Made by a program: the position numbers and the translations under genes. Under the pieces are notes generated by a model. It was not told the DNA's origin and did not search any database. It saw only the letters and a program-made list of their open reading frames with translations. Below are positions 332 through 23,748 of a stretch of 64,000 nucleotides of DNA, piece by piece (within the stretch, counting starts at the first letter, position 1; every line of letters starts with the position of its first letter). The stretch comes from an uncultured Eubacteriales bacterium (GTDB lineage Bacteria; Bacillota; Clostridia; Oscillospirales; CAG-272), in assembly GCA_934446365.1 (NCBI GenBank), contig CAKSDZ010000003.1:72587-136586 (forward strand), given 5' to 3'.

Positions 332-437
332 AGAACGGTGATCGACGGACAAGCGGCTCTTCCCGGGCCTCTCTCCGTTTTGTTTTATAAAAGAATCTTA
401 TAGATTTGCCGCCGTAAGGCGGCGGATGGAGGAAAAT

Positions 438-3662: not shown

Positions 3663-3669
3663 ATTTTTC

Positions 3670-3698
3670 GCTGTCCTGCGGCATAGCCGCAGGACAGC
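3670..3698 (+). terminator. 13-bp stem-loop after YfhO-family gene (no U-tract)
   Basis: GCTGTCCTGCGGC-ATA-GCCGCAGGACAGC is a perfect inverted repeat 8 nt after the stop. It lacks a T-run, so terminator function is uncertain. Confidence 0.3.
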
Positions 3699-3716
3699 TC
3701 TGTCATAAGCTTTGTC

Positions 3717-5369: not shown

Positions 5370-5543
5370 CCGGGAATCGTGGCGGCATGAGAAAAATAGG
5401 GTCGGCACAGATATCCGCCGCTTTTGTATGCTGCGGCGGACGTGCGGCTTTTTGAATGGAAATATGCGGCGGGCGCCGTATTTTGAAAGATTGCATTATG
5501 TGATGGAAAACAGACGGGATACCGGGAGAAAAGAGGAGATTTT

Positions 5544-7328: not shown

Positions 7329-7357
7329 AAAAAGGCAAAAATAGCAAGGCGGAGCGA

Positions 7358-7387
7358 TTGACAAAAAGAAGAAGAATGTGATATAAT
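7358..7387 (+). promoter_or_regulatory. sigma-70 promoter of structured leader/sRNA copy A
   Basis: TTGACA (7358-7363), 18-bp spacer, TGATATAAT extended -10 (7379-7387). The -35 context GATTGACAAAA and TGTGATA are shared with the copy at 41224. Confidence 0.5.
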
Positions 7388-7392
7388 GGGAA

Positions 7393-7497
7393 ACAGCAAA
7401 GAATTGCTTCCGGCAATTCGGGGCGTTTTACGCGCACGAGAAGTGCGCGGGAAACGCCCCCTCACGGGGTACCCCCTCACGGGGTACCTCGTTTTTT
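7393..7497 (+). ncRNA. structured leader or small RNA, copy A (unclassified motif)
   Basis: Hairpin 1 is GAATTGC-TTCCG-GCAATTC (7401-7419). Hairpin 2 is GGGGCGTTT..CGCGCAC-GAGAA-GTGCGCG..AAACGCCCC (7420-7460). The 15-mer CCCTCACGGGGTACC is tandemly duplicated (7459-7488). A terminator-like stem GGTACCCC/GGGGTACC is followed by T6 (7468-7497). The element lies 65 nt upstream of the pilin ATG. Confidence 0.4.
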
Positions 7498-7561
7498 GTT
7501 GTCAAGGAATGGGGCGCCTCCGTGAAAAAAGACAAAATATATATACATAGGAGGAAAACCC

Positions 7562-9583: not shown

Positions 9584-9595
9584 GAGGTGAAATAC

Positions 9596-10051
9596 ATGAA
9601 ACAGAATAATAAGAAAAAAGGCTTTACGCTTGTTGAGCTTGTCATCGTTATTGCGGTGATTGCAATTCTTGCGGGCGTGATGATTGCCACATTCTCAAAT
9701 GTGGTGAGCGACGCAAAGGAATCCGCAGCTATGCAGGAAGCGAAATCCAAAATCGATGCGGAATACATCGACTTTATCACAAATAATCCGGGTGAGGTTC
9801 CGGCTTCCATTTTCATCGGTGTTGCCGACGGCAAAGTGACGAATGTTGCATTTTCATCGAATCCCGATGAGCCGGGATTTATTAAGCTTGCAGGTGAGAA
9901 TGATGATATTGTAATCCTGACGCTCGGTGAGGAAAGCTTGGTGTTTACATGGACGGAGAAGGGCTATACGCTGGAAACCAAAACGGGTGTTACAGCGAGG
10001 ACGACAAACGCGACAACTGCGACCGAGGCTACTTCGCCGGAACAACCTTAA
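9596..10051 (+). CDS. type IV pilin-like protein (prepilin N-terminal domain)
   Basis: MKQNNKKKG|FTLVELVIVIAVIAILAG. ATG 9596 lies 8 nt after AAGAGG; the track start at 9587 is a GTG inside the RBS. Confidence 0.8.
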   Translation: MKQNNKKKGFTLVELVIVIAVIAILAGVMIATFSNVVSDAKESAAMQEAKSKIDAEYIDFITNNPGEVPASIFIGVADGKVTNVAFSSNPDEPGFIKLAGENDDIVILTLGEESLVFTWTEKGYTLETKTGVTARTTNATTATEATSPEQP

Positions 10052-10348: not shown

Positions 10349-10585
10349 ATGGACGGAATTTTTGATGAAAATTTAGAGGATTCGATAGAAAATCCAAGCG
10401 ATTATCGGGCGATTGCCTATTGTGATCACTGCGGCTTCGCTATTTATACGGCCGAAGAGGCATTGCTTGTAAAGGGAAGCCGCGACATCATCCACACCGA
10501 TTGCTGGGAGGAATACGCAGCAGATCATATGTTCGACTTTGTGATGAAAGCGGACGAGGACGGCCGTTTCGGTCATGGGCTCTGA
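10349..10585 (+). CDS. small Cys/His zinc-ribbon-like protein (first gene of head module)
   Basis: ATG 10349 follows GAAAGGAGGG. 78 aa with CDHC...HTDC; its stop overlaps the next start. Confidence 0.5.
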   Translation: MDGIFDENLEDSIENPSDYRAIAYCDHCGFAIYTAEEALLVKGSRDIIHTDCWEEYAADHMFDFVMKADEDGRFGHGL

Positions 10586-11024
10586 AAAGAGCGGACATGC
10601 CAAAAAGCAGGAGATCGCGCCGTCTGTTTTCGCAAGAAAGGCGGCGGCTTATTTTCGGGAATGCGACAGCGGCACGGCGACGGCGGCGTGCGACACGTGC
10701 GGGACGGAATTCGGAGACGCGAAGTGTGGAAAATGCGGCAAAAAACAGCGGCGTCCCTACACGCTTTCCGGCCTTTGCCTCGCGCTTGGAATCACCAAGC
10801 GAAAATTCGCAGCCCTCAAAGGCGATCAAAGCTTTGCGGACGCCGTAGAAATGGCACTTTTAAAAATTGAGGCGTATATTGAGGAAAACAGCATCACGGG
10901 GCATATCAGCGGGACGCTGGCGCTTGCGATTCTGCGCGAGAATTTCGGCTGGGGCGAGAAAACGGAATCCACGGACAGGATCGAGGTCGTGATGTCGGAG
11001 GAGGTCGGCTCTCTTGCAAAATGA
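10575..11024 (+). CDS. phage terminase small subunit-like protein
   Basis: 149 aa immediately upstream of and overlapping TerL. Contains a Cys cluster (CDTCG..CGKCG) and the segment PYTLSGLCLALGITKRKF typical of small terminase/packaging HTH proteins. Confidence 0.55.
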   Translation: MGSEKSGHAKKQEIAPSVFARKAAAYFRECDSGTATAACDTCGTEFGDAKCGKCGKKQRRPYTLSGLCLALGITKRKFAALKGDQSFADAVEMALLKIEAYIEENSITGHISGTLALAILRENFGWGEKTESTDRIEVVMSEEVGSLAK

Positions 11025-12342
11025 CGGCACCGAACGCCTCATTCTTGACATGAAGCCGTCGGCAAAGCAGCGGGAATTTTTTCTCTCCGAGGCGAAATTC
11101 ACCGCTTACGGCGGTGCGCGCGGCGGCGGGAAAAGCTTTGCTTTGCGCTATAAGCTGATTTTATTGTGTCTTGGATATCCGGGAATCCGCGTGCTGCTTG
11201 TCAGACGCAGCTATCCGGAGCTGCGGGAGAACCATATCCGCCCGCTGTGTGCGCTGCTTTGCGGCAAGCCTGCCGCTGCGGTTTACAGCGAACGGGACAA
11301 ATGCTTTGCGTTTTCCTGCGGTTCTCATCTTCAAATGGGATATCTCGCGGGGCACGGCGACCTGCTTCGCTATCAGGGGCAGGAGTACGACGTCATTGCC
11401 ATCGATGAGGCGACGCAGATCGACGAGCAGATGTTTCAGGCGCTTTCGGCTTCTTTGCGCGGTGCGAACCGTTTCCCGAAACGCATGTATCTCACGTGCA
11501 ATCCCGGCGGCGTGGGACACGGATGGGTCAAACGGCTTTTCATCGACAGGGAATACCGCGGCGCGGAAAATCCGGCGGATTACCGCTTTATTCCGGCCGG
11601 CATATACGACAATGAGGCGCTGATGAGGGCGGACCCGGACTATGTGAAACGGCTCGAAAATCTGCCGGAGGGCTTGCGCGCCGCATGGCTTTATGGCAGA
11701 TGGGATGTCTTTTCCGGTCAGTTTTTTCCGGAGTTCGATGAGCGGCGGCATGTATGCGAGCCGTTTTCGCTGCCGTCCTCTGCCGCGCATTACTGCGCGG
11801 TCGATTACGGACTTGACATGCTGGCGGCGCTGTTTATCGCGGTTCTGCCCGACGGACATGCTTATGTCTATGATGAGATTTATGCAAGCGACCTCATTGT
11901 CAGTACGGCCGCCGCCAAAATCCGAGAGAAGCTGCCGGAGAGGGCGGTTGTCATCGCGCCGTCCGACCTTTGGAGCCGAAGCCGTGACAGCGGACGCTCC
12001 GCTGCGGAGCTTTTTGCCGATGGCGGCGTCTATTTTACCAAAATCGTTCCGGATCGGGTGAACGGATGGCTTGCGCTCAAAGAGTGGCTTATGGTGACGA
12101 ACGGTACGCCGCGGCTGCGGATTTTTCGCGGCTGCCGCAATCTCATCCGCTGTCTTGCACAGCTGATGTATGATGAAAGGCGTCCGAACGACGCCGCCGT
12201 CGAACCGCACGAGCTCACGCACGCGCCGGATGCGCTGCGATATTTTGCGTCCTTCCGACAGGCGGTGCCGCCGGCGGAGCCGACGCTTCTGCGCGGTCGG
12301 AACGGAATCAAGAAAACAGAAAGGAATCGATATGAATTTTAA
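11014..12342 (+). CDS. phage terminase large subunit
   Basis: Walker A YGGARGGGKS, Walker B VIAIDEATQI, C-terminal nuclease-size domain. TTG start 9 nt after GAGGAGG; ATG 11050 is the alternative. Confidence 0.85.
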   Translation: MQNDGTERLILDMKPSAKQREFFLSEAKFTAYGGARGGGKSFALRYKLILLCLGYPGIRVLLVRRSYPELRENHIRPLCALLCGKPAAAVYSERDKCFAFSCGSHLQMGYLAGHGDLLRYQGQEYDVIAIDEATQIDEQMFQALSASLRGANRFPKRMYLTCNPGGVGHGWVKRLFIDREYRGAENPADYRFIPAGIYDNEALMRADPDYVKRLENLPEGLRAAWLYGRWDVFSGQFFPEFDERRHVCEPFSLPSSAAHYCAVDYGLDMLAALFIAVLPDGHAYVYDEIYASDLIVSTAAAKIREKLPERAVVIAPSDLWSRSRDSGRSAAELFADGGVYFTKIVPDRVNGWLALKEWLMVTNGTPRLRIFRGCRNLIRCLAQLMYDERRPNDAAVEPHELTHAPDALRYFASFRQAVPPAEPTLLRGRNGIKKTERNRYEF

Positions 12343-14035
12343 ATTTTGGAAGCATGGCGCGGAAAGCGGGGTGTCCTCCTGTCATGACGCTTCCGCAAGG
12401 GAACGGCGGATTGCCGCACTCCTCGACGCCGCCAAAACGGCAAGGAGCGGGACAGAGGCATATTGGCGGAAAATGCGCGCCTATTATGACGGCACGCACG
12501 ACACCGCAAAACAGACGGGGGATTTCATGGCCTCGCTCGACCTGCCGTGGATACCGGCGTCCGTGCCGGACGGATATATGCATGTCGAAAGTCAAATCGA
12601 GGCGAGCCCGCCCGATTTTGAATTTTCCGGCAGAGGTGAGTCCGACGAGGCGAAGGCGGATATCAGAGAGCGCGTGGTGCGCTATGTCGTGCAGAACAAC
12701 GACTTTACGGCGAAAAATGCAGCAAATGAGCGCAGGCTCGGCATCTACGGCAGCGCCGCATGGAAGCTTTCCGTCGGCCGCGGAGACGCAGGCGATGCGG
12801 AAATCCTGATTGAGAATCCGCCGCCGCAGACGCTCTTTCCCGACCCCGCGGCGACGTGCGTCGACGACTGTGAATATATCGGCTGCGTCTACCGGATGAG
12901 CGTCACACGCGCCGCCCGCATCTTCGCGGCCGACCTCGACCGACTGGGACTTACGATGGAGGAAATCCTGCGCGAGCGGGCATACGGGCGCAAAAGAGGA
13001 GCTGGGGATTCCTTGTTCGAGGGCGGCGGCGATCCGTCGGAGACGGTCGAAATCACGGAGTGGTGGTTCCGTCAGCCGCGGGACGGCGAGGAGGTCTGCG
13101 GTCTTTGCGGCGACGCCGGCACGGAAAATGTGACGTTCCGCTATGAAGCGGGGGATATCGCGCTTTCGATTCTGATTGAAGGGGTCGAGGTGCGGTACGT
13201 GCCGAAGTATTGGACGAAAACCGCATGCCGGAAATTCCCGTTTGTCATCTACGGCAAAATTCCGGGGGACGGCTCGATTTGGGGAAAAAGCGAAATGGAA
13301 CAGCTCATTCCGCTCATCGACGCCGCCGACAGGCAGCTCGCGTTCGCACAGCTCAACACGGCGTTTTTTGCCAATGATATCCTCGTATATGAGGAAAACG
13401 CCTTTGCGCCGGACAGCTATCCCGAAAACCGTCCGGGCGCAATATGGAAGCTGCGTCCCGGCATGTCGGATAAGGTGAAGCGGCTCGGAGGGCTTTCCGG
13501 CGACAGCATTTCCCATTATGAGATTGCGGACAGATACCGCGCCATGATGAAGGAGGCGCTCGGCAACTACGACTTTATGCAGGGCGACAGCTCAACCAAA
13601 GTCACGACGGCGACAGGGCTTGCCCTGCTCGGCGATTACGCCTCCCGCAGGATGCAGGCGAAAAATATCTGCAAGCGCGCGGGCTTTGAGCGGTTGTATA
13701 GGCTGATCGACTATATGGCGCTCGAGCTTTACGACTCCGACAAGGTGAAAGCCATCACGGACAGCGACACGGGATATTCCTTTGAAGAATATCTCGGCAC
13801 GGTCGGCTATGTGCCGGCGCTCGATGTGGTCGTCCATATCGGGGAGGGCGTCGAGAATTCGCATTCGTTTACGCTTTCCGCTTTGTCGGAGCTGATGGAG
13901 ACGGAGGTCACGGAGGCGAATTATCCGATGGTGCGCGCTTATATCAATGCACTGGGCATTCCGGAGCGCGCCTCGCTGATCGCGGCGCTGGACAGCAAAT
14001 TTGAAGGAAAAGCAGAGGAGACAACGCATGAATGA
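12332..14035 (+). CDS. phage portal protein
   Basis: 567 aa directly after and overlapping TerL. Size and position are canonical. ATG 12332 was chosen over the Arg-rich upstream extension from 12170. Confidence 0.7.
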   Translation: MNFKFWKHGAESGVSSCHDASARERRIAALLDAAKTARSGTEAYWRKMRAYYDGTHDTAKQTGDFMASLDLPWIPASVPDGYMHVESQIEASPPDFEFSGRGESDEAKADIRERVVRYVVQNNDFTAKNAANERRLGIYGSAAWKLSVGRGDAGDAEILIENPPPQTLFPDPAATCVDDCEYIGCVYRMSVTRAARIFAADLDRLGLTMEEILRERAYGRKRGAGDSLFEGGGDPSETVEITEWWFRQPRDGEEVCGLCGDAGTENVTFRYEAGDIALSILIEGVEVRYVPKYWTKTACRKFPFVIYGKIPGDGSIWGKSEMEQLIPLIDAADRQLAFAQLNTAFFANDILVYEENAFAPDSYPENRPGAIWKLRPGMSDKVKRLGGLSGDSISHYEIADRYRAMMKEALGNYDFMQGDSSTKVTTATGLALLGDYASRRMQAKNICKRAGFERLYRLIDYMALELYDSDKVKAITDSDTGYSFEEYLGTVGYVPALDVVVHIGEGVENSHSFTLSALSELMETEVTEANYPMVRAYINALGIPERASLIAALDSKFEGKAEETTHE

Positions 14036-14564
14036 TAACATAACAGAAGAAGACAAAACGCCCGTCGCCGGTTTCAATCGGGACGACGGGGACATGGAAT
14101 CCGCGGAAAACGGTGGGGTGGCGATGCCCGCCGCCCCGGACGGGGAAGCGCCGCCTGCCGCCGGTGCGGCTGGGGATTCCGACTTGCAAGAGGAGAACGC
14201 CGTACCGGCGGATATCTCTTTGGAAAACACGGGACCGGAAAGAGAACTCGACGATGCGCGCATCGCGGAGCTTTTGGCAAATCCGATGTTTATCCGTTTT
14301 GCGCGCGGACGCAGCGGCGGGCTTGAAACGGTCTGCCGCGAATTTGAGGAGATGCTGGCTTTGGGCGGGAAAGTGTCGGCTCCCCGCATGGCGGCGCCGA
14401 TTGCGGCGAAAATCGTACCCGCATCCTCCTCCGCTACGCCGGACGTGGCGCTGAACGAACGGCAGCGCGCAATCGCGCGCACCGCCGGCATGTCATACCG
14501 GGAATATTATGAGCTGATTTCCGAGCTTCCCGGTTCCAATCATCAAAATTATAAAGGAGAATAA
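14028..14564 (+). CDS. acidic scaffolding-like protein
   Basis: 178 aa, Asp/Glu/Ala/Pro-rich, located between portal and capsid genes. Its start overlaps the portal stop. Confidence 0.4.
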   Translation: MNDNITEEDKTPVAGFNRDDGDMESAENGGVAMPAAPDGEAPPAAGAAGDSDLQEENAVPADISLENTGPERELDDARIAELLANPMFIRFARGRSGGLETVCREFEEMLALGGKVSAPRMAAPIAAKIVPASSSATPDVALNERQRAIARTAGMSYREYYELISELPGSNHQNYKGE

Positions 14565-14567
14565 AAA

Positions 14568-15467
14568 ATGAGTAACGATATTTATACTTGGTCAAATGAT
14601 ATGTATCCGCTCGTCAAAAAGCGTTTTGACGACAGATATGCTTCGAGAATGAATCTCATCGGCAATGTATGCGGCATTGTGAAGCAGAATGAGCTTTCCT
14701 ATGAGCTGCCGGGGCTCGGCGGCTACGGCGAGCTTCCGGTGTATTCCGGCGGCACGCTTTCCTATGCGGACGGCAGCAAGAGCTTTCTTGCGACGGTGAC
14801 GCCGGTGGAACGCGCGCTTGCCATTCCGGTTTCCTATAAAAGAGCGAAGATCGACATTGTGGGCGAGGCCGACAAAACCGGCGTCCGGCTTGCGGATTCC
14901 GCCTATATGACGGTGCTCGGCGAATTTTACCGCGTGTTTGGAAACGCGCTTACCGCGAAGGGTGCGGACGGCGTCGCATGGGCGTCCGCTTCGCATCCGG
15001 TGGATACGACTGCCGACAGCGATACGTTTTCCAACCTGATTACCACGGAGCTTTCCGTCGCGGCGATCTGCGCGGCACAGGCCACGGCGGCGTCCTTTGT
15101 GACGGCGGACGGGCTTCCGTTTGTGGCGAATTTCGACCTGCTTCTCGTTTCGCCGGAGCTGGAAGGCACGGCAAGAACCATCTGCGGCGAGGATGCGCTT
15201 CTCACGCCGGCGGGCGGTGTCGGCGGCAATCCCTACGGCATGAAATACATGGTGGTCGGCGGAGGCGGCGTCGGCTTCTCGGGCAAAAGATGGGCGCTCG
15301 CGGACAGCATGCTGCTGCCGGAGGTTTTGAAGCTCGTCTATATCACGGAGCCGTCCGTCGTGCTTTCCCCAAGGGAAAATCCGCTTGTCGCGGATTACAT
15401 TTCCTATGTCGATTTCGCGTTCGGCTTCGGAGATGCAAGACCGATCATCTTCTCGAATCCCGCCTGA
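14568..15467 (+). CDS. phage major capsid protein-like
   Basis: 299 aa with a strong AAGGAG RBS. Position after portal and scaffold, and size typical of HK97-fold/gpT-like coat proteins. Followed by a strong hairpin. Confidence 0.6.
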   Translation: MSNDIYTWSNDMYPLVKKRFDDRYASRMNLIGNVCGIVKQNELSYELPGLGGYGELPVYSGGTLSYADGSKSFLATVTPVERALAIPVSYKRAKIDIVGEADKTGVRLADSAYMTVLGEFYRVFGNALTAKGADGVAWASASHPVDTTADSDTFSNLITTELSVAAICAAQATAASFVTADGLPFVANFDLLLVSPELEGTARTICGEDALLTPAGGVGGNPYGMKYMVVGGGGVGFSGKRWALADSMLLPEVLKLVYITEPSVVLSPRENPLVADYISYVDFAFGFGDARPIIFSNPA

Positions 15468-15486
15468 ACGAATGAAAAATCGGAAA

Positions 15487-15512
15487 TCCGGAGGAGCGGC
15501 CGCTCCTCCGGA
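15487..15512 (+). promoter_or_regulatory. perfect 26-nt palindrome after capsid gene (attenuator/stabiliser-type hairpin)
   Basis: TCCGGAGGAGCGG/CCGCTCCTCCGGA with no U-tract. The 3-prime arm abuts the RBS of the next gene. Confidence 0.4.
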
Positions 15513-15526
15513 GAAAGGAGAACTTT

Positions 15527-16120
15527 ATGACTTACGGAATGCTGCGTGACCGTATTTTATCGCTTTTGGATATCGGCACGGAGGAGCTGGCGTCTGAGGG
15601 AAGCCTGCTTTCGGCGGCGGACGGCCTGCTGCCGCAGACTGTGGACGCCACAGCGCGAAAGGCAGCTTTGCTTTTGAAATGTATCGTCAAAACGGCAGTG
15701 CTTCATTTTGAGTATGGCGAAAGTGATGCCGTGGCGGTGCTGCCGTCCGATTTTATCTCCGCGAAGCAGCTTCGCTGCGGCCGGAAAACCTATGGAAGCG
15801 AGAGCTTCGAGGCGGTGGGCGGGAGGCTTTGGTTTTTTGCCGCAGGAGCGGGAACATATGAGCTTGTGTATTTTGCCTATCCTGCGCGGATAGACGGGAG
15901 CATCGACGGCGACAAGGAGCTGGAATTTGACGATTACGCGGCGGATATCGTCGCATACGGCGCCGCGGCGGAGCTTTCTCATAGTCTTTATCCCGGCGAT
16001 ATGAAACGGTTTATGCGCCTTGCCACGGAATTTGACGAAAGAGCCGCGAACGCCGCTCCGCGTTCCGGCGACAGCGCCGTCCGCAATGCCGTTTTCGGCA
16101 GAAAGCGGGGTGTTCTATGA
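15527..16120 (+). CDS. hypothetical phage structural protein (head-tail adaptor position)
   Basis: 197 aa with an AAAGGAG RBS. Call is positional only, by analogy with a P22-like gene order. Confidence 0.45.
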   Translation: MTYGMLRDRILSLLDIGTEELASEGSLLSAADGLLPQTVDATARKAALLLKCIVKTAVLHFEYGESDAVAVLPSDFISAKQLRCGRKTYGSESFEAVGGRLWFFAAGAGTYELVYFAYPARIDGSIDGDKELEFDDYAADIVAYGAAAELSHSLYPGDMKRFMRLATEFDERAANAAPRSGDSAVRNAVFGRKRGVL

Positions 16121-17940
16121 GCCTGCTTCGAGTGAGAGGGAAAACGGGAACGGCGGAGGCTTATGACGAATTTGCACGGTATGACGAAGCATACCATGAA
16201 TATGCGATGAAGGATTTTTCGGGTGGTGTCATGACGGGAGAGCTTCATTCCCGTGCGGATACCGTTTCGCAGGCGGTGAATGTGCGCACGGATAGCAGCG
16301 GCGCTTTGGTTGCGATGTCCGTGCCGGTCACGGCCTTTGACGGGACGGTGGGCGCGGGGGAGATCGTATTCTCCTGCTATGACGACGGCATTTTGCTTTT
16401 CCGAAAGGGAAATACGCTGTATGCGGTAAAGGACGGCGCGCTCTCCGTGGTCGGCACCGCGGGCATGCTCCAATCGGAAAAAAGCGCCGTTTATACGGCG
16501 GACGGCCTATTCTGCATCATTGACGGCGACAGCATTTATATGGTTGACAGAGATCTCACCGTTTCCACGCCGGAGCCATATATTCCGACCTGTTATACGG
16601 ATGTTTCCGCGGACGGCGCTGTCAAAACGGAGAGCGAAAAGCCGAACCTGTTCTGCCGATACATCGATATCATCTTGGCAGCGGAATCGTCTCCCACACG
16701 GAAGATTCCGCCGGATATCGCCGTCGATGACACCTATATTCGGATATGGGATCTGACAAACGGCTCGGAGCTCGGCGATCCCGATTTCAACTTCGACGGG
16801 GAAACCATTCAATTTTTCGGGCTGTATTCTCGGAAATTCCGCGTTCGGCTGAAGCTTGCCGATTCCGGCACCTCCTCACAGCTGTCCTATACTTCCCTTG
16901 AAGCGCTGCGTGAGCTTGTTTCCTGCCCGGAAAAGGTGCTTCCGATATCGCTGCCGTCGTCGAGACTTGCCTATCTTTCTTTCGGCGGTGAAAACGGAAG
17001 ATGGATCACGGCCCTGAAAATGGAGGGCATATCGGATTTCTTATATCTTTCGGATGATAATATTATAAGGAAAGAATATCCGGAGAGGATCGCTTCGATC
17101 GTCGAGTATTCCGATGGATATTTTGTGTTTTCCGCCGGTGCCGTTAAAAAGCTGTTTATCACGGAGGATGAAAACGGCGTTCCGGTGTTTGAAATCAAGA
17201 GCTTCAAGAACGATTTCGGCTCGGATATGCCAGGCAGCATATGCGGCTTCGACGATAAAATTCTGTTTGCAAATTCGCGCGGCGGCGTGTATTATATCAA
17301 CAAATTCGGCATTTCGGAAAAGGACGTGAGCCGGCATATTTCCCGCAATATCGAGCAGGGAGAAAACGGATTTTTTTCTCATACCGAGGCGGAATATGCG
17401 GCGGCCTGTGCGGTTTGTGCGTTCGGGCGGTATATGCTGACGGTGGGCGATATGACCTATATTTGGGATTATACCGCAAGGCTGCCGTCCGGCACGCAAA
17501 GCAGGGAGGATGAAGATAAAATGATATGGACGATGTGCGACGCCGTTTGCCCGTCGGCGTATCTGTCGGAGCTATCCAAAAAGTTGTATTATACGGATAG
17601 GACGACCGGAGCGCTCCGCTGTTTTTCCTCGGACGATTCCGAATCGGACCCCATAGCGATCCGTGTCGAAACGGCCGCCTGCGATTTCGGCGAGAGCGCG
17701 GAAAAAGTCCTTATTGGCTTGTCGGTGCGATATCGGGCGGCGGAAAATGTGACGCTTCGTCTTTTGTTCGACGGAGAATTTTCTCCGTGCGAATATGTCC
17801 TGCCGCCGCAGCCGCGGTTTGGTACGGTGAATTTGAAAATCCATTCGGTGCGGCTTGTAAAATGTGCGGCTATGCTGGAATGCTCCCGTTCTTTTTCGCT
17901 GGAAAGCGTTCATTTTCGCTATCTTTCGGCGAAATCTTAA
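16117..17940 (+). CDS. hypothetical phage structural protein (607 aa; hub/neck position)
   Basis: ATGA start/stop overlap with the previous gene; last gene before the terminator. No recognisable motif by eye. Confidence 0.45.
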   Translation: MSLLRVRGKTGTAEAYDEFARYDEAYHEYAMKDFSGGVMTGELHSRADTVSQAVNVRTDSSGALVAMSVPVTAFDGTVGAGEIVFSCYDDGILLFRKGNTLYAVKDGALSVVGTAGMLQSEKSAVYTADGLFCIIDGDSIYMVDRDLTVSTPEPYIPTCYTDVSADGAVKTESEKPNLFCRYIDIILAAESSPTRKIPPDIAVDDTYIRIWDLTNGSELGDPDFNFDGETIQFFGLYSRKFRVRLKLADSGTSSQLSYTSLEALRELVSCPEKVLPISLPSSRLAYLSFGGENGRWITALKMEGISDFLYLSDDNIIRKEYPERIASIVEYSDGYFVFSAGAVKKLFITEDENGVPVFEIKSFKNDFGSDMPGSICGFDDKILFANSRGGVYYINKFGISEKDVSRHISRNIEQGENGFFSHTEAEYAAACAVCAFGRYMLTVGDMTYIWDYTARLPSGTQSREDEDKMIWTMCDAVCPSAYLSELSKKLYYTDRTTGALRCFSSDDSESDPIAIRVETAACDFGESAEKVLIGLSVRYRAAENVTLRLLFDGEFSPCEYVLPPQPRFGTVNLKIHSVRLVKCAAMLECSRSFSLESVHFRYLSAKS

Positions 17941-17944
17941 AAAA

Positions 17945-17978
17945 ACAGCCGGAAAAATTGATTTCCGGCTGTTTTTTT
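17945..17978 (+). terminator. rho-independent terminator closing the head module
   Basis: ACAGCCGGAAA-AATTGA-TTTCCGGCTGT followed by T6. Confidence 0.8.
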
Positions 17979-17999
17979 CCGTTATTTATGGTATAATTA

Positions 18000-18464
18000 C
18001 CCCACAAATGCGGAGCATTTGTGTTAAAGGAAATAGAAACATGGCAGAAAGCCTAAAAGGGTATAGATCGCTTGGACGAAAGACACCCCACAAATGCGGA
18101 GCATTTGTGCCCATGGAAATAGAAACATGGCAGGAAGCTTAAAAGGGTATAGATCGCTTGGACGAAAGCTACCCCACAAATGCGGAGCATTTGTGTTAAG
18201 GGTAACAGAAACATGGCAGAAAGCTTAAAAAGGTATAGATCGTTTGGATAAAAGACACCCCACAAATGCGGAGCATTTGTGTCCATGGAAACAGAAACAT
18301 GGCAGAAAGCTCAAAAGGGTATAGATCGCTTGGATGAAAAACACCCCACAAATGCGGAGCATTTGTGTCTATGGAAACAGAAACATGGCAGAAAGTCCAA
18401 AAGGGTATAGATCGCTTGGATAAAAGACACCCCACAAATGCGGAGCATTTGTGTCCATGGAAAC
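18000..18464. repeat. 86-bp tandem repeat array, 5.4 copies, each with an invariant palindrome
   Basis: Copies start at 18000, 18086, 18172, 18258, 18344 and 18430, an exact 86-bp period. All carry CCCCACAAATGCGGAGCATTTGTG (9-bp arms CACAAATGC/GCATTTGTG). The remaining 62 bp are about 90% conserved. Confidence 0.9.
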
Positions 18465-18689
18465 GAAAAACCGGGAATGTTAAAGTATAGAATCATGCGG
18501 ATATATCCAATATAAATAAGATCGAGAATTTTTCTCGCCGGCGGCCTCGTTGAAATTTGGATTTTTGCCAATCGGAAAGCATCGGCATTGGGCGCGATTC
18601 CAAACGGAAAAATATAAATAAAAAATTTTTTTGTAAAAAATGTGACCTGCGCAGGGTCTTATGCGTTTTACATACAGGAGGGACAAAAA

Positions 18690-19187
18690 GTGCTCTTATC
18701 TTTGGACAGCAAAACGGCGCTTGAAAAAGCTTATGACCGATATGCCGACATGCTGTATCGTCTCGCGCTCTCCCATTTGGGCAGGCGAGAGGATGCAGAG
18801 GATGCGGTTCAGGACGTCTTTACAAAATATGTCGGCACATCTCCTCGGTTTTCCGACGACGAGCACGAGCGCGCATGGCTCGTTCGGGTTACGGTGAATC
18901 GGTGTCACGATATGCAAAGACGCGGAAAGCTGCGCTGTCATGATTCGCTCGATGATATATCCGAGCTTCCGCTTGCGGCGGACGAAAGTGAAAACGGCGT
19001 ATTGCAAACGGTGTTTACGCTTCCGGAAAAATACAAGACGGCGATTGTGCTTCATTATTTGGAGGGCTTTTCCGTCGAGGAAATATCATCGATGATGGGA
19101 TTATCGGGTTCCGCCGTTAAGATGCGTCTGTCCCGCGGCAGAGAGCTGCTGAAAAATCTGCTCGATAAGGAGGAAATTTATGTTTGA
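18690..19187 (+). CDS. ECF-type RNA polymerase sigma-70 factor
   Basis: Region 2 (DAEDAVQDVF..RVTVNRCHD) and region 4 HTH (VLHYLEGFSVEEISSMMGLSGSAVKMRLSRGR). GTG 18690 lies 8 nt after AGGAGG. Confidence 0.85.
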   Translation: MLLSLDSKTALEKAYDRYADMLYRLALSHLGRREDAEDAVQDVFTKYVGTSPRFSDDEHERAWLVRVTVNRCHDMQRRGKLRCHDSLDDISELPLAADESENGVLQTVFTLPEKYKTAIVLHYLEGFSVEEISSMMGLSGSAVKMRLSRGRELLKNLLDKEEIYV

Positions 19188-19773
19188 CAAAAAAACCGTC
19201 GACGCCTATAAGCAAATCACGGCGCCGGATGAACTGAAAGAAAAGGTTATGGCGGCATGTCTTGTCGATAAGGCTCCCGAGAAAAGAAATTTCTTCGGAA
19301 CTATGAGAATGTATGCGACACTCGCCGCGTGTTTTGTCCTTGTCATCGTTTTCTCTGTTTTTGCCGTCGGGAATTTCGGCGATCTTTCGGTTTCTGTCTA
19401 TGGAAAGACGCTTACATCCGAATCTGTAATATTGTCCGATTCGGAAACCGAGCCTATTGCGTATTCCGCCGAGCCGAGGACTGTCCGCCGGACGAGTATT
19501 CCGGTGGAGCTCGAAGTCAGCGGTGAAACGGAGATATCCGTTTCCGATGGAATGATGAAGGTATGCGACGCCGAAACGGAGGAGGAGCTGTATTCCGGTA
19601 CCGAATTTACGGCTGAAGAAGACGTGCTTATTTATTGGACGGTGGATGCCGACGAAACGGCAACACACTTTGAAATGGTGATAAGCGGACGGAAAAAAAG
19701 CTATGTGCTTCTGCTGGATTTCGATGAGAATACAAAGCAATGGGCAATATGCAGAGAAAAGCGAAAGAACTGA
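19180..19773 (+). CDS. putative membrane-anchored anti-sigma factor
   Basis: Start overlaps the sigma gene stop (ATGTTTGA). Single TM span (YATLAACFVLVIVFSVFAV) after a ~45-aa cytoplasmic N-terminus. Confidence 0.5.
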   Translation: MFDKKTVDAYKQITAPDELKEKVMAACLVDKAPEKRNFFGTMRMYATLAACFVLVIVFSVFAVGNFGDLSVSVYGKTLTSESVILSDSETEPIAYSAEPRTVRRTSIPVELEVSGETEISVSDGMMKVCDAETEEELYSGTEFTAEEDVLIYWTVDADETATHFEMVISGRKKSYVLLLDFDENTKQWAICREKRKN

Positions 19774-19791
19774 TTTTGGAGGTCTGTTTAC

Positions 19792-20427
19792 ATGAAAAAA
19801 CTGTTGGCTTTGATGCTGGCTGCCGTCATGATTTTGGCGATTGTGTCCTGCGGCAAAAACAGTGAGGAGGATACGACGAAAGCCAGCGATACGACAAAAC
19901 CGGAGACGACCGGTTCGGAGCAAACGACATCGCCCGAGGAGGCGACCGATCCGGAGGAGACCACGGCGCCGGAGGAAACGACGGGAGAACCGGAGATTCC
20001 GGAAAAGCCCGACGCGACGCTTTCCGAGCTTATCGATAAGATTTATGAGATCCATCCTGTCGATGTTTTTGTCATGACAACGGAATGTGACCTTGGCGAT
20101 GCGGATTATATGAAGTATGCGATCGGACTTGAAAGCGTGGATAAGGCTTCGGAGGCCTGTACTTCCGGTCCGATGATATCGGCTCAGGCTTATGAGCTGG
20201 CGCTTGTCCGCGTAAAGGATGCGGCGGATGCCGAGGCAGTTGCAAGGGAAATGCTCGAGGGCGCCGACCCCGGCAAGTGGATCTGTGTGAGAGCGGAATC
20301 CGTGCAGGTCGCAGTTTCCGGCGACTTGATTCTGATGGTGATGTCCTCGAAGGAGGAAGCGGCCGGCTTGGTTGACGCATTCAAGACCGTTTGCGGCGGC
20401 GAGCTCGATTTTGTTCTGGAAAAATAA
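19792..20427 (+). CDS. lipoprotein, DUF4358-like (tentative)
   Basis: Lipobox LAIVSC, Thr/Pro/Glu-rich linker, ~130-aa globular C-terminus. Paralogous to the next gene. Confidence 0.6.
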   Translation: MKKLLALMLAAVMILAIVSCGKNSEEDTTKASDTTKPETTGSEQTTSPEEATDPEETTAPEETTGEPEIPEKPDATLSELIDKIYEIHPVDVFVMTTECDLGDADYMKYAIGLESVDKASEACTSGPMISAQAYELALVRVKDAADAEAVAREMLEGADPGKWICVRAESVQVAVSGDLILMVMSSKEEAAGLVDAFKTVCGGELDFVLEK

Positions 20428-20471
20428 TATACACCAAAAAACGATTTAAAAATTTAAAGGAGATTTTGAAC

Positions 20472-21149
20472 ATGAAAAAATTACTTGCCTTTATTCTTGC
20501 AGCAGCGATGATTTTTGCCTTTGCCTCTTGCGGCAAGGACGACCCTGAGGATACGACCGGAAAGGACCCTTCTCAGACCACCGCGGATACGAAAGCTCCG
20601 GAGGATACAACCGCTCCGGAAGATACGACAAGTCCGGAGGATACAACCGGCGGTAAGGAGCCGGAGGTGCCGGAAGCTTCCGGTGCCCTTGACGTGCTGA
20701 ATAAAATTTGGGATTCGTTTGATGATGAAGAAAAATTCGCAGTCATAGGCGGAATGGATTCCGAAGACAATATTGTCGACGGCGCTCCGGGCAGTTTCAG
20801 CGTCGAAAACGCAGAGCTGCTCGATTCCACGCTTGGCTTTCCGCAGGCATCCGCCTCTCAAATAGAGAGTGCCGCGTCCCTTATCTTTATGATGAACGCC
20901 AATTCCTTTACGGCAGGCGCTTATCAGGTCAAAAATTCTTCCGATATCGAAACGCTTGCCTCTGCTATCAAAGACAATATCATGAACAGACAGTGGATGT
21001 GCGGCTTCCCGGATAAGCTGATCGTCATCAGCGCCGGTGATTCTATTGTTTCCGCTTTCGGAAACGAAGATTTTATCGAGCTTTTCAAAACCAAGACGCT
21101 TGCAGCGCTCGACGGTGCCAAGCTTCTCTATGAGGAACCGATTCTCTGA
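20472..21149 (+). CDS. lipoprotein, DUF4358-like (tentative)
   Basis: ATG 20472 follows AAGGAG. Lipobox AFASC and PEDTT-repeat linker. Confidence 0.6.
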   Translation: MKKLLAFILAAAMIFAFASCGKDDPEDTTGKDPSQTTADTKAPEDTTAPEDTTSPEDTTGGKEPEVPEASGALDVLNKIWDSFDDEEKFAVIGGMDSEDNIVDGAPGSFSVENAELLDSTLGFPQASASQIESAASLIFMMNANSFTAGAYQVKNSSDIETLASAIKDNIMNRQWMCGFPDKLIVISAGDSIVSAFGNEDFIELFKTKTLAALDGAKLLYEEPIL

Positions 21150-21225
21150 GCATAGCGACAGATTTCATCAGCGGGAGAGATAAAAGCTTCTCCCGCTGAA
21201 ATAAAAATACACACGGGTAAAAAAC

Positions 21226-22626
21226 ATGTTATTTTCCAGTATTCCGTTTCTTTACTATTTTCTGCCGTGCGTACTGATTCTGTATTTTGTAGTGCCCAAA
21301 TGCCTGAAAAACACGGTGCTGCTTTTGTCCAGCCTTGTTTTTTACGCTTGGGGCGAACCGAAATATGTGCTGCTCATGGCGGTATCCATTACGCTTGGCT
21401 ATGTATTCGGGCTTCTGATTGAGATATGGCGGGGAACAAAGCTGTCGAAGCTGTTTCTCATTCTCTCGATTGTGACGAGCCTCGGACTGCTCGGATATTT
21501 CAAATATGCGGATTTCTTTATTGCCAATTTCAATGCGGCGACAGGGCTTTCCGTCCCGCTTCTCAAAATTGCGCTGCCGATCGGCATCAGCTTCTATACG
21601 TTCCAGATTCTCAGTTATACCGTAGACGTTTACAGAGGCGAGGTCAAGGCGCAGAGAAATTATATCAGTCTTGCCGTTTATGTGGCGCTGTTCCCGCAAC
21701 TTATTGCGGGTCCTATTGTCCGCTATTCCGATATCGCGGCGCAGCTGGAATCGAGAACACACAGCTTTTCCAATGTTGCCCTCGGCACACGCCGGTTTAT
21801 TCTCGGTCTTGCCAAGAAGGTTCTGATTGCAAATGCGCTTGGTGAGCTTTGCGATATCTTTAAGGAATCAAACGACAAATCCGTTCTTTTCTTTTGGCTT
21901 TACGCGATTGCGTTTACGCTGCACATTTATTTCGACTTCTCGGGTTACAGCGATATGGCGATCGGACTCGGCAAAATCTTCGGCTTTGATTTCCTCGAAA
22001 ACTTCGATTACCCTTACATTTCGGGGAGCATTACGGAATTTTGGCGCCGCTGGCATATGTCGCTTGGCTCGTGGTTCCGGGATTATGTGTATATTCCGCT
22101 CGGCGGCAACCGTGTATCCAAAGCCCGCTGGTTTCTCAACATATTCATCGTCTGGATGCTGACGGGCTTTTGGCACGGCGCCGCATGGAACTTCATCGTA
22201 TGGGGACTTTTCTTTGCGATTCTGCTGATTATCGAGAAGCTGTGGCTCTTGAAGCCCCTGAAAAAATCGAAGGTGTTAAGTCACATTTATGTGATGTTCT
22301 TCGTCATCATCAGCTTTGTTATTTTCAATGCGGCGGATATGAAGGAAGCATTTTCCTATATCGGAGGTATGTTCGGAGCCGGCGGCATCCCGTTTATCTC
22401 GGAGGAATGGCTCTATTATCTGCGCAGCTACGGCGTCGTGCTCATTGTGGCGATCATCGGTGCGACACCGCTTGTGAAGAAGCTCGTTCTTTCCGTCAAA
22501 AAGAAATCGACGGGCGAAAAAATCATGAACATTGCGGAGCCTATCATGCTTGTGGCGCTTTTGCTTGTGATCACCGCTTATTTGGTGGATGGCTCCTTCA
22601 ATCCGTTCCTCTATTTCAGATTCTAA
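21226..22626 (+). CDS. MBOAT family O-acyltransferase (AlgI/DltB-like)
   Basis: Polytopic membrane protein with WRRWHMSLGSWFRDYVYIPLGG and GFWHGA motifs. Confidence 0.9.
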   Translation: MLFSSIPFLYYFLPCVLILYFVVPKCLKNTVLLLSSLVFYAWGEPKYVLLMAVSITLGYVFGLLIEIWRGTKLSKLFLILSIVTSLGLLGYFKYADFFIANFNAATGLSVPLLKIALPIGISFYTFQILSYTVDVYRGEVKAQRNYISLAVYVALFPQLIAGPIVRYSDIAAQLESRTHSFSNVALGTRRFILGLAKKVLIANALGELCDIFKESNDKSVLFFWLYAIAFTLHIYFDFSGYSDMAIGLGKIFGFDFLENFDYPYISGSITEFWRRWHMSLGSWFRDYVYIPLGGNRVSKARWFLNIFIVWMLTGFWHGAAWNFIVWGLFFAILLIIEKLWLLKPLKKSKVLSHIYVMFFVIISFVIFNAADMKEAFSYIGGMFGAGGIPFISEEWLYYLRSYGVVLIVAIIGATPLVKKLVLSVKKKSTGEKIMNIAEPIMLVALLLVITAYLVDGSFNPFLYFRF

Positions 22627-22641
22627 GGAGGTGACGCTTTT

Positions 22642-23748
22642 ATGACGACAAAAATCAAAAATATCGTGACGGTCTGTGTGATGGCCGTGTTCCTGTTCGG
22701 TCTTTCGTTTTATTGCTGGGCGAAGCCCGCGGATGCGTTTTCCGACAGCGAAAGGCGGAATCTCGATCAGTTTCCGAAATTGGATAAGGATTCCGTTTTA
22801 TCAGGCGATTTCATGACGGACTTTGAGGATTACACGCTCGATCAGTTTCCGCTGCGCGACCGGTTCCGCACGCTCAAAGCGTTTACACGATTCTATGTAT
22901 TCTGGCAGAAGGATAACAACGATATTTATATCGAAGACGGATATGCTGCAAAGCTCGAATATCCGATGAATGAAAGCTCGATCGATCGGGCGGCGGAGAG
23001 GTTCCGGTATCTCTATGACAAATACATGGCGGATAAGGATGTAAACGTTTATTTTTCCATCGTGCCTGACAAGAGCTATTTCCTTGCGGAGAAGAACGGA
23101 TATCTCGCGATGGATTATGAGAAGTTTTTCTCGCTGATGCAGGAAAAGACGGACTATATGGAGTATATCGATATCACGGGACTGCTCGATATCGAGGACT
23201 ACTACAAGACGGATACGCACTGGAAGCAGGAAAAGCTCACGGACGTCGCGGCGAAGCTTGCGGCCGGCATGGGCGTCACGCTTTCCGGCAATTACACGGA
23301 AAAGACGCTCGACAATCCGTTTTACGGCGTGTATTACGGACAATCTGCGCTTCCGCTCTCGCCCGACACCATCAAGTATCTGACAAGCGACGTGCTGGAT
23401 GGCTGCAAGGTTTACAACTATGAGAGCGGCAGACCGGAGGAAATCGGCGTATACAATATGGATAAAGCTTATGGGAAGGATCCGTATGAGATGTTCCTTT
23501 CCGGCTCACTCTCTCTCATTACGATTGAGAATCCGAATGCGACGACCGACAAGGAGCTTGTCATCTTCCGTGATTCTTTCGGAAGCAGCATCGCTCCGCT
23601 TTTGGTGGAGGGTTATGCCAAAGTCACGCTTGTCGATATTCGGTATGTCGCAAGCGATCTCGTCGGAAGATTCGTAGATTTTGAAAATCAGGATGTCCTG
23701 TTCCTTTACAGCACGCTTGTGCTCAACAACAGCGTTACGCTGAAATAA
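22642..23748 (+). CDS. DHHW family protein (AlgX/AlgJ-like partner of MBOAT)
   Basis: N-terminal TM anchor, YYKTDTHW motif, FRDSFG motif. Immediately downstream of the MBOAT gene. Confidence 0.75.
   Translation: MTTKIKNIVTVCVMAVFLFGLSFYCWAKPADAFSDSERRNLDQFPKLDKDSVLSGDFMTDFEDYTLDQFPLRDRFRTLKAFTRFYVFWQKDNNDIYIEDGYAAKLEYPMNESSIDRAAERFRYLYDKYMADKDVNVYFSIVPDKSYFLAEKNGYLAMDYEKFFSLMQEKTDYMEYIDITGLLDIEDYYKTDTHWKQEKLTDVAAKLAAGMGVTLSGNYTEKTLDNPFYGVYYGQSALPLSPDTIKYLTSDVLDGCKVYNYESGRPEEIGVYNMDKAYGKDPYEMFLSGSLSLITIENPNATTDKELVIFRDSFGSSIAPLLVEGYAKVTLVDIRYVASDLVGRFVDFENQDVLFLYSTLVLNNSVTLK

Follow-up and report, generated by a model that had tools for sequence, protein, structure and literature searches.

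A promoter-proximal hairpin module with variable tandem copy number in gut Eubacteriales

Results

The Array and Its Setting

We analyzed a 64,000-nucleotide stretch of DNA from an uncultured Eubacteriales bacterium (contig CAKSDZ010000003.1, positions 72,587 to 136,586; hereafter the window), in which six copies of an 86-bp unit, the last of them truncated, stand head to tail between a cluster of phage head-like genes and an envelope operon headed by a gene for an extracytoplasmic function (ECF) sigma factor. The annotated part of the window is ordinary chromosome. An earlier sequence-only reading had described the array and offered three roles for it: a protein-binding site for the neighboring packaging machinery, a series of small structured RNAs, or a neutral minisatellite. 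The layout that it gave holds. The array begins 21 bp after the terminator of the head-like cluster and ends about 225 bp before the start codon of the sigma gene, and Tandem Repeats Finder (TRF) reports a single array at 17999–18468 with 5.5 copies, 90% matches and no indels. The 24-mer CCCCACAAATGCGGAGCATTTGTG that opens each unit occurs exactly six times, 86 bp apart, at the starts listed earlier (18000, 18086, 18172, 18258, 18344 and 18430); no other occurrence was found in the window even at three mismatches, and shuffled sequences give an expectation of zero. In each unit, CCC leads into a 9-bp stem with a loop of 3 nt, after which come an A-rich stretch, GGGTATAGAT and a further 17 nt (Table 1).

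Table 1. Features of the window between the head-like gene cluster and the ECF sigma gene
Feature	Position	Strand	Basis
Tandem array, 5.5 copies of the 86-bp putative leader module	18000..18468	+	TRF, sequence
Stem-loop 1, CACAAATGC-GGA-GCATTTGTG	18003..18023	+	Fold of -10.4 kcal/mol; 0 of 200 shuffles as good
Stem-loop 2	18089..18109	+	24-mer match
Stem-loop 3	18175..18195	+	24-mer match
Stem-loop 4	18261..18281	+	24-mer match
Stem-loop 5	18347..18367	+	24-mer match
Stem-loop 6, within the truncated final unit	18433..18453	+	24-mer match
Intrinsic terminator of the 607-aa gene (last of the head-like cluster)	17939..17978	+	17-bp stem, then T run
Extended -10 sigma-A promoter P1, TATGGTATAAT (TRTGnTATAAT)	17987..17997	+	Read from sequence
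Nonrepeated, lineage-specific remainder of the leader	18469..18607	+	Common to L015; not in L068 or L069
Weak candidate promoter, TAGAAT-N17-TATAAA	18488..18516	+	Sequence alone; unlisted by promoter scan
ECF-type promoter GTGACC-N16-CGTTTT, directly 5' of the sigma gene	18642..18669	+	Read from sequence
ECF sigma gene, 165 aa, GTG start after AGGAGGG	18690..19187	+	Pfam Sigma70_r2 and r4_2

Constraint within the Unit

Among the five full copies, 17 of the 86 columns vary, and all 17 lie in columns 25–86, outside the 24-mer (hypergeometric P = 0.002). Copies depart from the consensus at 8.4% of the positions outside the 24-mer, in line with the one in ten estimated before, whereas the six 24-mers together (6 x 24 = 144 nt) contain no difference against about 12 expected at the outside rate (P ~3e-6). 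These counts bear out the suggestion that the palindrome is under selection. The 62-nt stretches between the hairpins are 79–92% identical to one another (5–13 differences in 62 positions), and the 11 nt directly after the stem (columns 25–35) are the most variable part of the unit. The divergence among window units is about the same as their divergence from the units of an orthologous array in a related genome (locus L015, below), so the array is not a recent burst; its stems are intact nonetheless.

Several other readings of the repeated sequence were tried and set aside. No open reading frame (ORF) is conserved across units, the units at a second locus (TagA, below) lack the ATG and the frames differ, which agrees with the earlier judgment that the array is noncoding and removes a short-peptide reading. 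A scan flagged the hairpin together with GGGTGTCTTT as a minus-strand terminator in some copies, a reading that we dropped because the 94-bp form of the unit has no T tract. Readings of CCCCACA, CATAGAT and GAAAC as a DnaA box, a sporulation-sigma -10 element or an ECF promoter fail on spacing and on C/T variation. A second inverted repeat, CCATG-N10-CATGG, had been reported in copies 2, 4 and 6, with a CTATG variant in copy 5; we found it in copies 2 and 4 and the variant in copy 5, but the partner in copy 6 is ACCGG. The repeat is missing from paralogous units and is therefore no conserved structure. Folding of the whole array was uninformative, as the copies cross-pair. The palindrome half-site CACAAATG, of which two stray copies had been noted, occurs four times outside the array (24, 10280, 40971 and 47236) against 1.75 expected. 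The stem plus 11 nt ending in GAAAC also resembles the repeat of a CRISPR (clustered regularly interspaced short palindromic repeats) array, but the would-be spacers are 79–92% identical and the would-be handle is the most variable part of the unit; the 29 window proteins that were scanned, from 426 to 34002, included no cas gene product.

Four Loci with Variable Copy Number

We scanned a collection of one genome per species and a metagenome collection for the hairpin arms. Both scans required exact arms, and the four loci recovered are thus a lower bound. The orthologous locus in the metagenome-assembled genome (MAG) Eubacteriales MAG4602 (L015) is 90–93% identical to window positions 14955–23217, yet contains 2.5 copies. 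MAG4602 carries the unit at three further places, none with phage genes. The same four loci are present in the CDZB01 assembly, and 11 additional contigs from the metagenome scan all belong to them. With an nhmmer profile of the unit we found no further copy, degenerate or otherwise, in the 64-kb window or in the other DNA fetched.

At the ECF sigma locus the period is 86 bp, and the copy number is 5.5 in the window, 2.5 in L015, L050 and L051, at least 2.5 in L080 and L082, 1.5 in L078, one plus a decayed copy in L068 and zero in L069 and L070. The second locus precedes a WecG/TagA glycosyltransferase gene (Pfam) and has 1.6 or 4.6 copies, again with a period of 86 bp. The third holds one unit of the 94-bp form upstream of a gene for a 70-aa XRE/HTH_26 protein, which is followed by GT4 and acyltransferase genes; the fourth, at a gene for a UDG-family glycosylase (Pfam), has 0, 1, 2 or 3 copies with a period of 94 or 91 bp. 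Three of the four downstream gene sets are envelope-related. Copy number, the variation of which had been proposed as a check, thus differs at three of the four loci, from 0–1 up to 3–5.5, the values being approximate because most assemblies are from short reads. Four independent metagenome contigs (L079, L080, L081 and L082, positions 1–250) start within the array of the ECF locus. Short-read assemblies therefore break at the repeat, and copy numbers published for loci of this sort cannot be relied on.

The TagA array is of the 86-bp unit type and even shares part of the upstream flank of the ECF locus. Upstream of it, on the minus strand of L020 (5146–5190), lies a remnant, GCCGTTTATGGTATTTTCCCCATTTTTGTGGTATAATAA, that resembles an older promoter-plus-unit copy with the center of the hairpin deleted and has the flank CCGTT..TTATGGTAT in common with the ECF locus. 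This shared flank suggests that the TagA array was copied from the ECF locus.

Independence from the Head-Like Gene Cluster

The gene cluster upstream of the array is phage-like but head-only (window 10575–17940; L068 2071–9481; L069/L070 ~2084–9658; L078 1–2742). It encodes a small terminase, a large terminase, a portal of the P22/SU10 type, a 187-aa ORF, a Phage_capsid_4 capsid of 299 aa and proteins of 197 and 607 aa, the last two without a family match, and no tail, lysis or integrase genes were found near it. Type IV pilin-like genes flank the cluster on one side and the ECF sigma operon on the other, and the synteny is kept in taxa whose sigma factor is only 81% identical (L069/L070, which appear to be without a TerS gene). 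In a more distant relative (L071; sigma 70% identical) the sigma, MBOAT and DHHW genes are present and the head cluster is absent. The cluster has the look of a remnant, domesticated or fixed long ago, and not of a recent prophage.

The first of the roles proposed earlier was that of a pac, centromere or iteron site serving the TerS/TerL genes of this cluster. Such sites, as in sopC of the F plasmid or the pac sites of phages, consist of tandem units with a short palindrome next to DNA-handling genes, and the array, adjoining the head-like cluster, has formally the same make-up as sopC. However, sopC and pac sites are bound by a co-encoded cognate protein and travel with it, whereas the array is independent of the head cluster: relatives with the same synteny of head cluster and ECF sigma gene have 0 to 2.5 copies, so that the co-occurrence proposed as a check failed. 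The unit stands at three phage-free loci, and the orthologous head clusters of L069/L070 lack the hairpin; both of the findings that the sequence-only reading had itself set against a packaging role were thereby made. In addition, a strong terminator separates the array from the cluster, the array has its own outward-facing promoter, and no match to the unit turned up among 2.9 million viral contigs, 50,697 phage records and 72,556 plasmids. We regard a packaging or partitioning site as hardly credible.

Conservation of Stem Pairing

Three blocks are conserved in the 18 distinct units compared: NCCC with the stem, a stretch rich in GAAA, and AAAAGGG[CT]ATAGAT. The loops vary (GGA, GAA, AAA, AAG and AGA), and the consensus fold of the whole unit computed with RNAalifold consists of the 9-bp stem only. 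In the window species the arms are invariant. As invariant arms cannot alone separate a protein site from a structure, we compared loci fetched by synteny. At the ECF locus of L078 (sigma 86% identical), the stem is CACAAACGC-GAAA/GGAA-GCGTTTGTG, and both loops fit GNRA. At the glycosylase locus of a sister genome (L072 in ERZ28657060), three units of 94–95 bp keep the same frame with other stems, CGCAAGCG-AGTG-CGCTTGCG and CGCAGGCG-GATA-CGCTTGCG. Among 14 distinct units, 98.4% of the cells are paired, against only 23–54% in registers slid by 1–3 columns. Three of the nine stem pairs have changed on both sides and one G–U pair is found; pair 10–19 went from U–A to C–G in two separate lineages.

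Genome ERZ28657060 holds two stem sequences, with CACAAATGC arms at its ECF locus (L068) and CGCAAGCG arms at its glycosylase locus (L072), and the G–U variant in L072 folds at -14.3 kcal/mol on the plus strand compared with -9.5 kcal/mol and a C–A mismatch on the minus strand. The compensatory changes, the two stems in one genome and the strand bias of the G–U pair argue that pairing on the plus strand has been selected, rather than one recognition sequence. There is also a hint of a 4-bp GGGY/RCCC helix across unit junctions, its fourth pair being U–A or U–G in the 86-bp type and C–G in the 94-bp type.

The same data bear on the earlier proposal of a neutral minisatellite, that is, an array without function whose invariant 24-mer came from concerted evolution or chance. 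Such an array would account for a copy number that varies freely down to zero in healthy-looking relatives, and the leader is hypervariable anyway over the stretch from P1 to the ECF promoter. The invariant hairpin is left unexplained, however: gene conversion would homogenize entire units, not 24 of 86 columns, the arms are identical across paralogous loci with diverged flanks, and arms that have changed have done so on both sides. We consider this reading, already disfavored, to be decidedly improbable.

Alternatively, the units could make up a functional multihairpin RNA, either processed to pieces of ~86 nt or serving to sequester or recruit an RNA-binding protein, with ToxI, CsrB or the boxB of nut sites as models. 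Behind one promoter the array has 5.5 structured units that are nearly identical, a copy count equal to that of ToxI; the loops are nearly all purine (GGA, GAA, AAA, AAG, AGA, GAAA and GGAA), and each window unit has three GGA motifs, one of them in the loop. A type III toxin–antitoxin array of the ToxI kind is rejected by the downstream genes, which are ordinary (ECF sigma, WecG/TagA, XRE and UDG-family glycosylase) with no ToxN/AbiQ-type toxin or endoribonuclease gene after any array, and by the lack of a terminator at the array end. A CsrA sponge of the CsrB/RsmZ kind is rejected by the loops, as GGA is confined to the ECF locus of the window and the L015 lineage; loops elsewhere are GAA, AAA, AAG, AGA, AGTG, GATA, GAAA or GGAA, with GAA or four-nucleotide loops in the other ECF-locus arrays. 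Single copies of the unit are common, and Rfam gave no gathering-score hits in the window and only sub-threshold, terminator-driven hits near the array. Overall we think a multihairpin RNA of this kind quite unlikely. What stands of the structured-RNA role proposed earlier are the compensatory stem changes, the G–U pair compatible with the plus strand only and the position downstream of a promoter; this support does not extend to discrete 86-nt RNAs, and the second stem is not conserved.

Coupling to Promoters and Empty Sites

All units and arrays are oriented toward the downstream gene, and at the ECF, TagA and XRE loci a TRTGnTATAAT box lies 2–3 nt ahead of the first unit. In the window this is P1, overlooked in the sequence-only reading, which follows shortly after the intrinsic terminator of the upstream gene and ends 2 nt ahead of copy 1. 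At nearly every locus the stem-loop begins 5 nt past the extended -10 box. As the stem starts 5 nt after the -10 hexamer in most promoter-adjacent units, the predicted +1 is the second base of the stem; for P1 the start is predicted near A18004. The internal units of the 86-bp arrays have no -10 box, and their stems are not near a predicted start; neither a promoter scan nor inspection revealed internal promoters in these units. In the 91- to 94-bp variants, by contrast, a TRTGnTATAAT box lies inside every unit, which makes these arrays tandem promoters, and all of the promoters but the gene-proximal one have a hairpin. The glycosylase locus, where the box is inside the units, has a degenerate box before the first unit in some strains. 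At the XRE locus of L038/L056, one 94-bp unit stands between two -10 boxes.

Empty sites were found at two of these loci. Sister-taxa orthologues of the XRE gene, 90% identical in protein and in the same synteny, have a TTGCAA-17-TATAAT promoter that leads straight into the gene. In L069/L070, where the sigma factor is 81% identical, the head cluster, the terminator and the TTTGTGGTATAAT box (TGGTATAAT box) are kept and the hairpin is absent; homology with the window stops exactly at 17997, the last T of TATAAT, and resumes at 18608. A motif TGT[CA]AAATGC lies 7–13 nt past the -10 box in the hairpin-less L074/L075, upstream of the glycosylase gene, and in L069/L070 (9710–9740), and in L074 it is followed by GATAGATC; the two could derive from the 5' arm and the ATAGAT block or have preceded them.

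Insertion at a fixed position invites comparison with selfish elements. Repetitive extragenic palindromic (REP) sequences and the mosaic elements built from them (BIME) are intergenic and carry a short invariant motif 5' of an imperfect palindrome, the stem sequence of which varies between families while its pairing is kept. The unit has this architecture, with an invariant CCC and a covarying stem, and the CCC plus hairpin could be recognized, as single-stranded DNA, by a transposase or recombinase; this enzyme would insert new copies of the unit at promoters and also give rise to the tandem copies, as for a REP or a miniature inverted-repeat transposable element, any effect on host genes being incidental. 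The unit has reached new loci, with empty XRE sites in sister taxa and a TagA array akin to the ECF locus in unit type and flank; the insertion position relative to the -10 box is always the same, three of the four loci are amplified and the G–T variant is tolerated on one strand only. On the other hand, only four loci per genome are known, the same in every assembly seen and a lower bound given the exact arms required, no terminal inverted repeats are present, and apart from the -10 box no target-site duplication is clear. REPs number in the hundreds, typically form inverted pairs and have a cognate RAYT gene, whereas the units here are few and in direct repeat, and no transposase or RAYT gene was seen near any copy in the fetched loci, no genome-wide search having been made. 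Moreover, internal stems are intact in units 8–21% diverged, which points to continuing selection and not to past mobility alone. A selfish origin of this sort appears unlikely.

The position of the hairpin would also suit an array of DNA operators, in which the palindrome binds a dimeric regulator at +1 of the promoters of a small envelope regulon and further copies serve as auxiliary operators, as roadblocks or for titration. A perfect 9-3-9 palindrome does overlap the predicted start site, the arms are identical at four promoters of one genome with flanks 20–35% diverged, and the downstream genes are envelope-related at three of the four loci. A single-sequence operator or iteron is rejected by ERZ28657060, with its CACAAATGC and CGCAAGCG arms in homologous units at different loci, and three further findings speak against operators: the G–T variant in L072 is asymmetric, the change from a 3-nt to a 4-nt loop would alter the half-site spacing, and in the 86-bp arrays most copies lack a promoter that they could control. 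The XRE protein is the only regulator encoded next to a unit; it was rejected as a binder of the hairpin because its 90%-identical orthologues without the hairpin keep another upstream palindrome and likelier operator, AATGTTCGA-N4-TCGAACA. We hold operators to be a rather poor prospect.

All close relatives (L038 ~405–430, minus strand; L056 ~9150–9180; L061–L064 upstream of the XRE gene) have the palindrome in question, AATGTTCGA-cttc-TCGAACAAAAT, just 5' of the -35 box that precedes the small XRE/HTH_26 gene; it is likely the autoregulatory operator of the XRE/HTH_26 protein.

The ECF Sigma Operon

The terminator upstream of P1 is kept in L015, L068, L069, L070 and L078, and a terminator scan found none on the plus strand between the array and the sigma gene. 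The ECF-type promoter is conserved in L015, L068, L069, L070, L078 and L079–82 and, from the usual autoregulation of ECF sigma genes, is presumably a target of the sigma factor itself. The mechanical ORF of the sigma gene begins at GTG 18642, within this promoter; the true start is the GTG given in Table 1, as homologues have 165 aa and the ribosome-binding site AGGAGGG precedes it. The sigma gene heads an envelope operon and is followed by three genes of unclear function and by MBOAT, DHHW and Rce1-like genes. Imperfect tandem repeats of 36 bp (19902–19982) and 18 bp (20585–20644) lie downstream of sigma inside ORFs of 211 and 252 aa with weak New_glue/DUF4358 matches; they are coding low-complexity sequence, the products being probable secreted proteins or lipoproteins.

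Discussion

The module is a new, small family, specific to one lineage of gut Eubacteriales, in which at least four loci have it directly 3' of an extended -10 sigma-A promoter. For the array in the window we favor, at about an even chance, a copy-number-variable tandem amplification of a promoter-proximal leader module, the hairpin of which would act as a stem-loop in the plus-strand leader RNA and the copies of which would have multiplied by unequal recombination. A transcript from P1 would begin in stem 1, cross five more stems with A-rich linkers and enter the ECF sigma operon, the array making up about 470 nt of a 5' untranslated region of ~690 nt. Lying at or within a few nucleotides of the transcript 5' end, the stem-loop may shield the leader from the 5'-end-dependent decay carried out with RppH and RNase J1, and cleavage in the A-rich linkers would leave a new structured 5' end. 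Secondary structure at the 5' end is known to stabilize bacterial mRNAs against such decay, and RNase Y cleaves single-stranded, AU-rich stretches that adjoin a structure (PMC3997798). The E. coli ompA and papA leaders and the Bacillus structures blocking RppH and RNase J1 likewise place a stable hairpin near the transcript 5' end, with the same proposed action (PMC3997798); these known stabilizers differ in being single, gene-specific leaders that are not repeated, dispersing or tandemly amplified. Copy number would shift by unequal recombination or slippage between units, as has been discussed for boxB arrays in pneumococci (PMC3049150).

Several points weigh against this leader model. The stem covariation comes from two lineages only, and a palindromic protein site co-evolving with its binder would yield the same symmetric changes. 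The start site and the read-through into the sigma gene are deduced from sequence. Of the stem-loops in an 86-bp array, the first alone would lie at the 5' terminus, and the five internal ones are equally invariant; the model therefore needs the extra assumption of processing in the linkers. At the glycosylase locus, the first promoter is degenerate in some strains (TGTACAAT abutting the stem in L037; TGGTAATAG in L076) and the stem is intact. A simple stabilizer does not explain the AAAAGGG[CT]ATAGAT block or the invariant CCC, and the amplification at three of the four loci suggests an active duplication mechanism or selection for copy number, neither of which is explained.

A bolder reading, on which we would place only a small chance, sees the unit as a self-spreading promoter-plus-leader cassette that copies itself to a fixed position after a sigma-A -10 box and then amplifies in tandem. 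It would tune envelope genes (ECF-sigma/MBOAT, TagA and GT4) strain by strain as a contingency mechanism based on a variable number of tandem repeats (VNTR) at promoters, and in the 91- to 94-bp form each copy would add another complete promoter. On this reading the covarying stem with its purine-rich loop could be the handle for a structure-specific factor, for example, a recombinase or a boxB-type antiterminator.

In architecture, the family is of a familiar kind, that of the mycobacterial interspersed repetitive unit (MIRU)-VNTR and pneumococcal BOX intergenic repeats: homologous short units stand at several intergenic loci of one genome and form head-to-tail arrays with strain-variable copy number. 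It is set apart from both by being fixed to a sigma-A -10 box, by the duplication of a whole promoter in one variant and by its covarying stem core. The MIRUs described by Supply et al. in Mycobacterium tuberculosis are reportedly units of 40–100 bp at several intergenic loci, head to tail, co-oriented with the flanking genes and variable among strains. Like these MIRU-VNTR loci (for the use of the term, see PMC3294723), the family described here has homologous intergenic units in head-to-tail, gene-oriented arrays. MIRUs, however, lie between operon genes at about 40 loci, contain short ORFs overlapping the neighboring start and stop codons and have no promoter or conserved hairpin, whereas our family has four known loci and its unit abuts or contains a -10 box.

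The pneumococcal BOX elements, of the form boxA-boxB(n)-boxC, are closer in some respects. The number of tandem boxB modules varies among strains, more so in longer arrays; the transcribed element is predicted to form a stem-loop, and it can raise or lower downstream expression (PMC3049150). Both families are dispersed intergenic repeats of a Gram-positive host with an internal module in tandem array. BOX differs in its more than 100 copies per genome, its distinct end modules and the absence of a fixed position relative to promoters, whereas the units here have no end modules and always start right after a -10 box. The Correia elements of Neisseria are small repeats that can bring in or generate a promoter when they insert and that, once transcribed, are substrates of a nuclease (PMC3049150); they differ in having terminal inverted repeats, a TA duplication and no tandem amplification.

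If the leader model is true, the array is uninformative about DNA packaging, and it shows instead structured leader modules that spread between promoters and expand in gut Clostridia, with large strain differences in the 5' regions of envelope and stress-response genes. Such arrays would be usable as strain markers, and they may alter the expression of cell-surface modification genes relevant to interactions with phages and the host. A tempting but wrong pac-site annotation is also removed from a conserved head-like gene cluster.

Two other dispersed repeats have the same arms. In the Margulisiibacteriota MAG JBFWNS01, a different repeat has at least 17 dispersed copies of CACAAATGC-N3-GCATTTGTG, some of them in tandem with spacings of 81 and 169 bp (L001, L005, L010, L012, L013, L021, L025, L029, L030, L035, L040, L045 and L047). 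Ahead of each copy stands an A/T-rich, -10-like box; behind it come GGTCG, another hairpin in which compensatory changes are clear, and CTCCCGCTGCGCGG. The repeat has no Rfam match and probably represents an unrelated family, of small RNAs or of the REP-like kind, whose stem is the same by chance. The Oscillospiraceae MAG SIG615 contains a larger repeated structured element in inverted pairs (L006 1220–1930; L036 1–300 and 4790–4960), AATCC[AG]CAAATGC-NNN-GCATTTG[TC]G, followed by a second covarying hairpin (CCGAAGGGTCAGGAATGACCCTTCG) and likewise without an Rfam match. We rejected kinship of the array unit with either repeat, as nothing is common beyond the stem, and the stem sequence varies even within the unit family, so that the match in the arms is probably coincidental.

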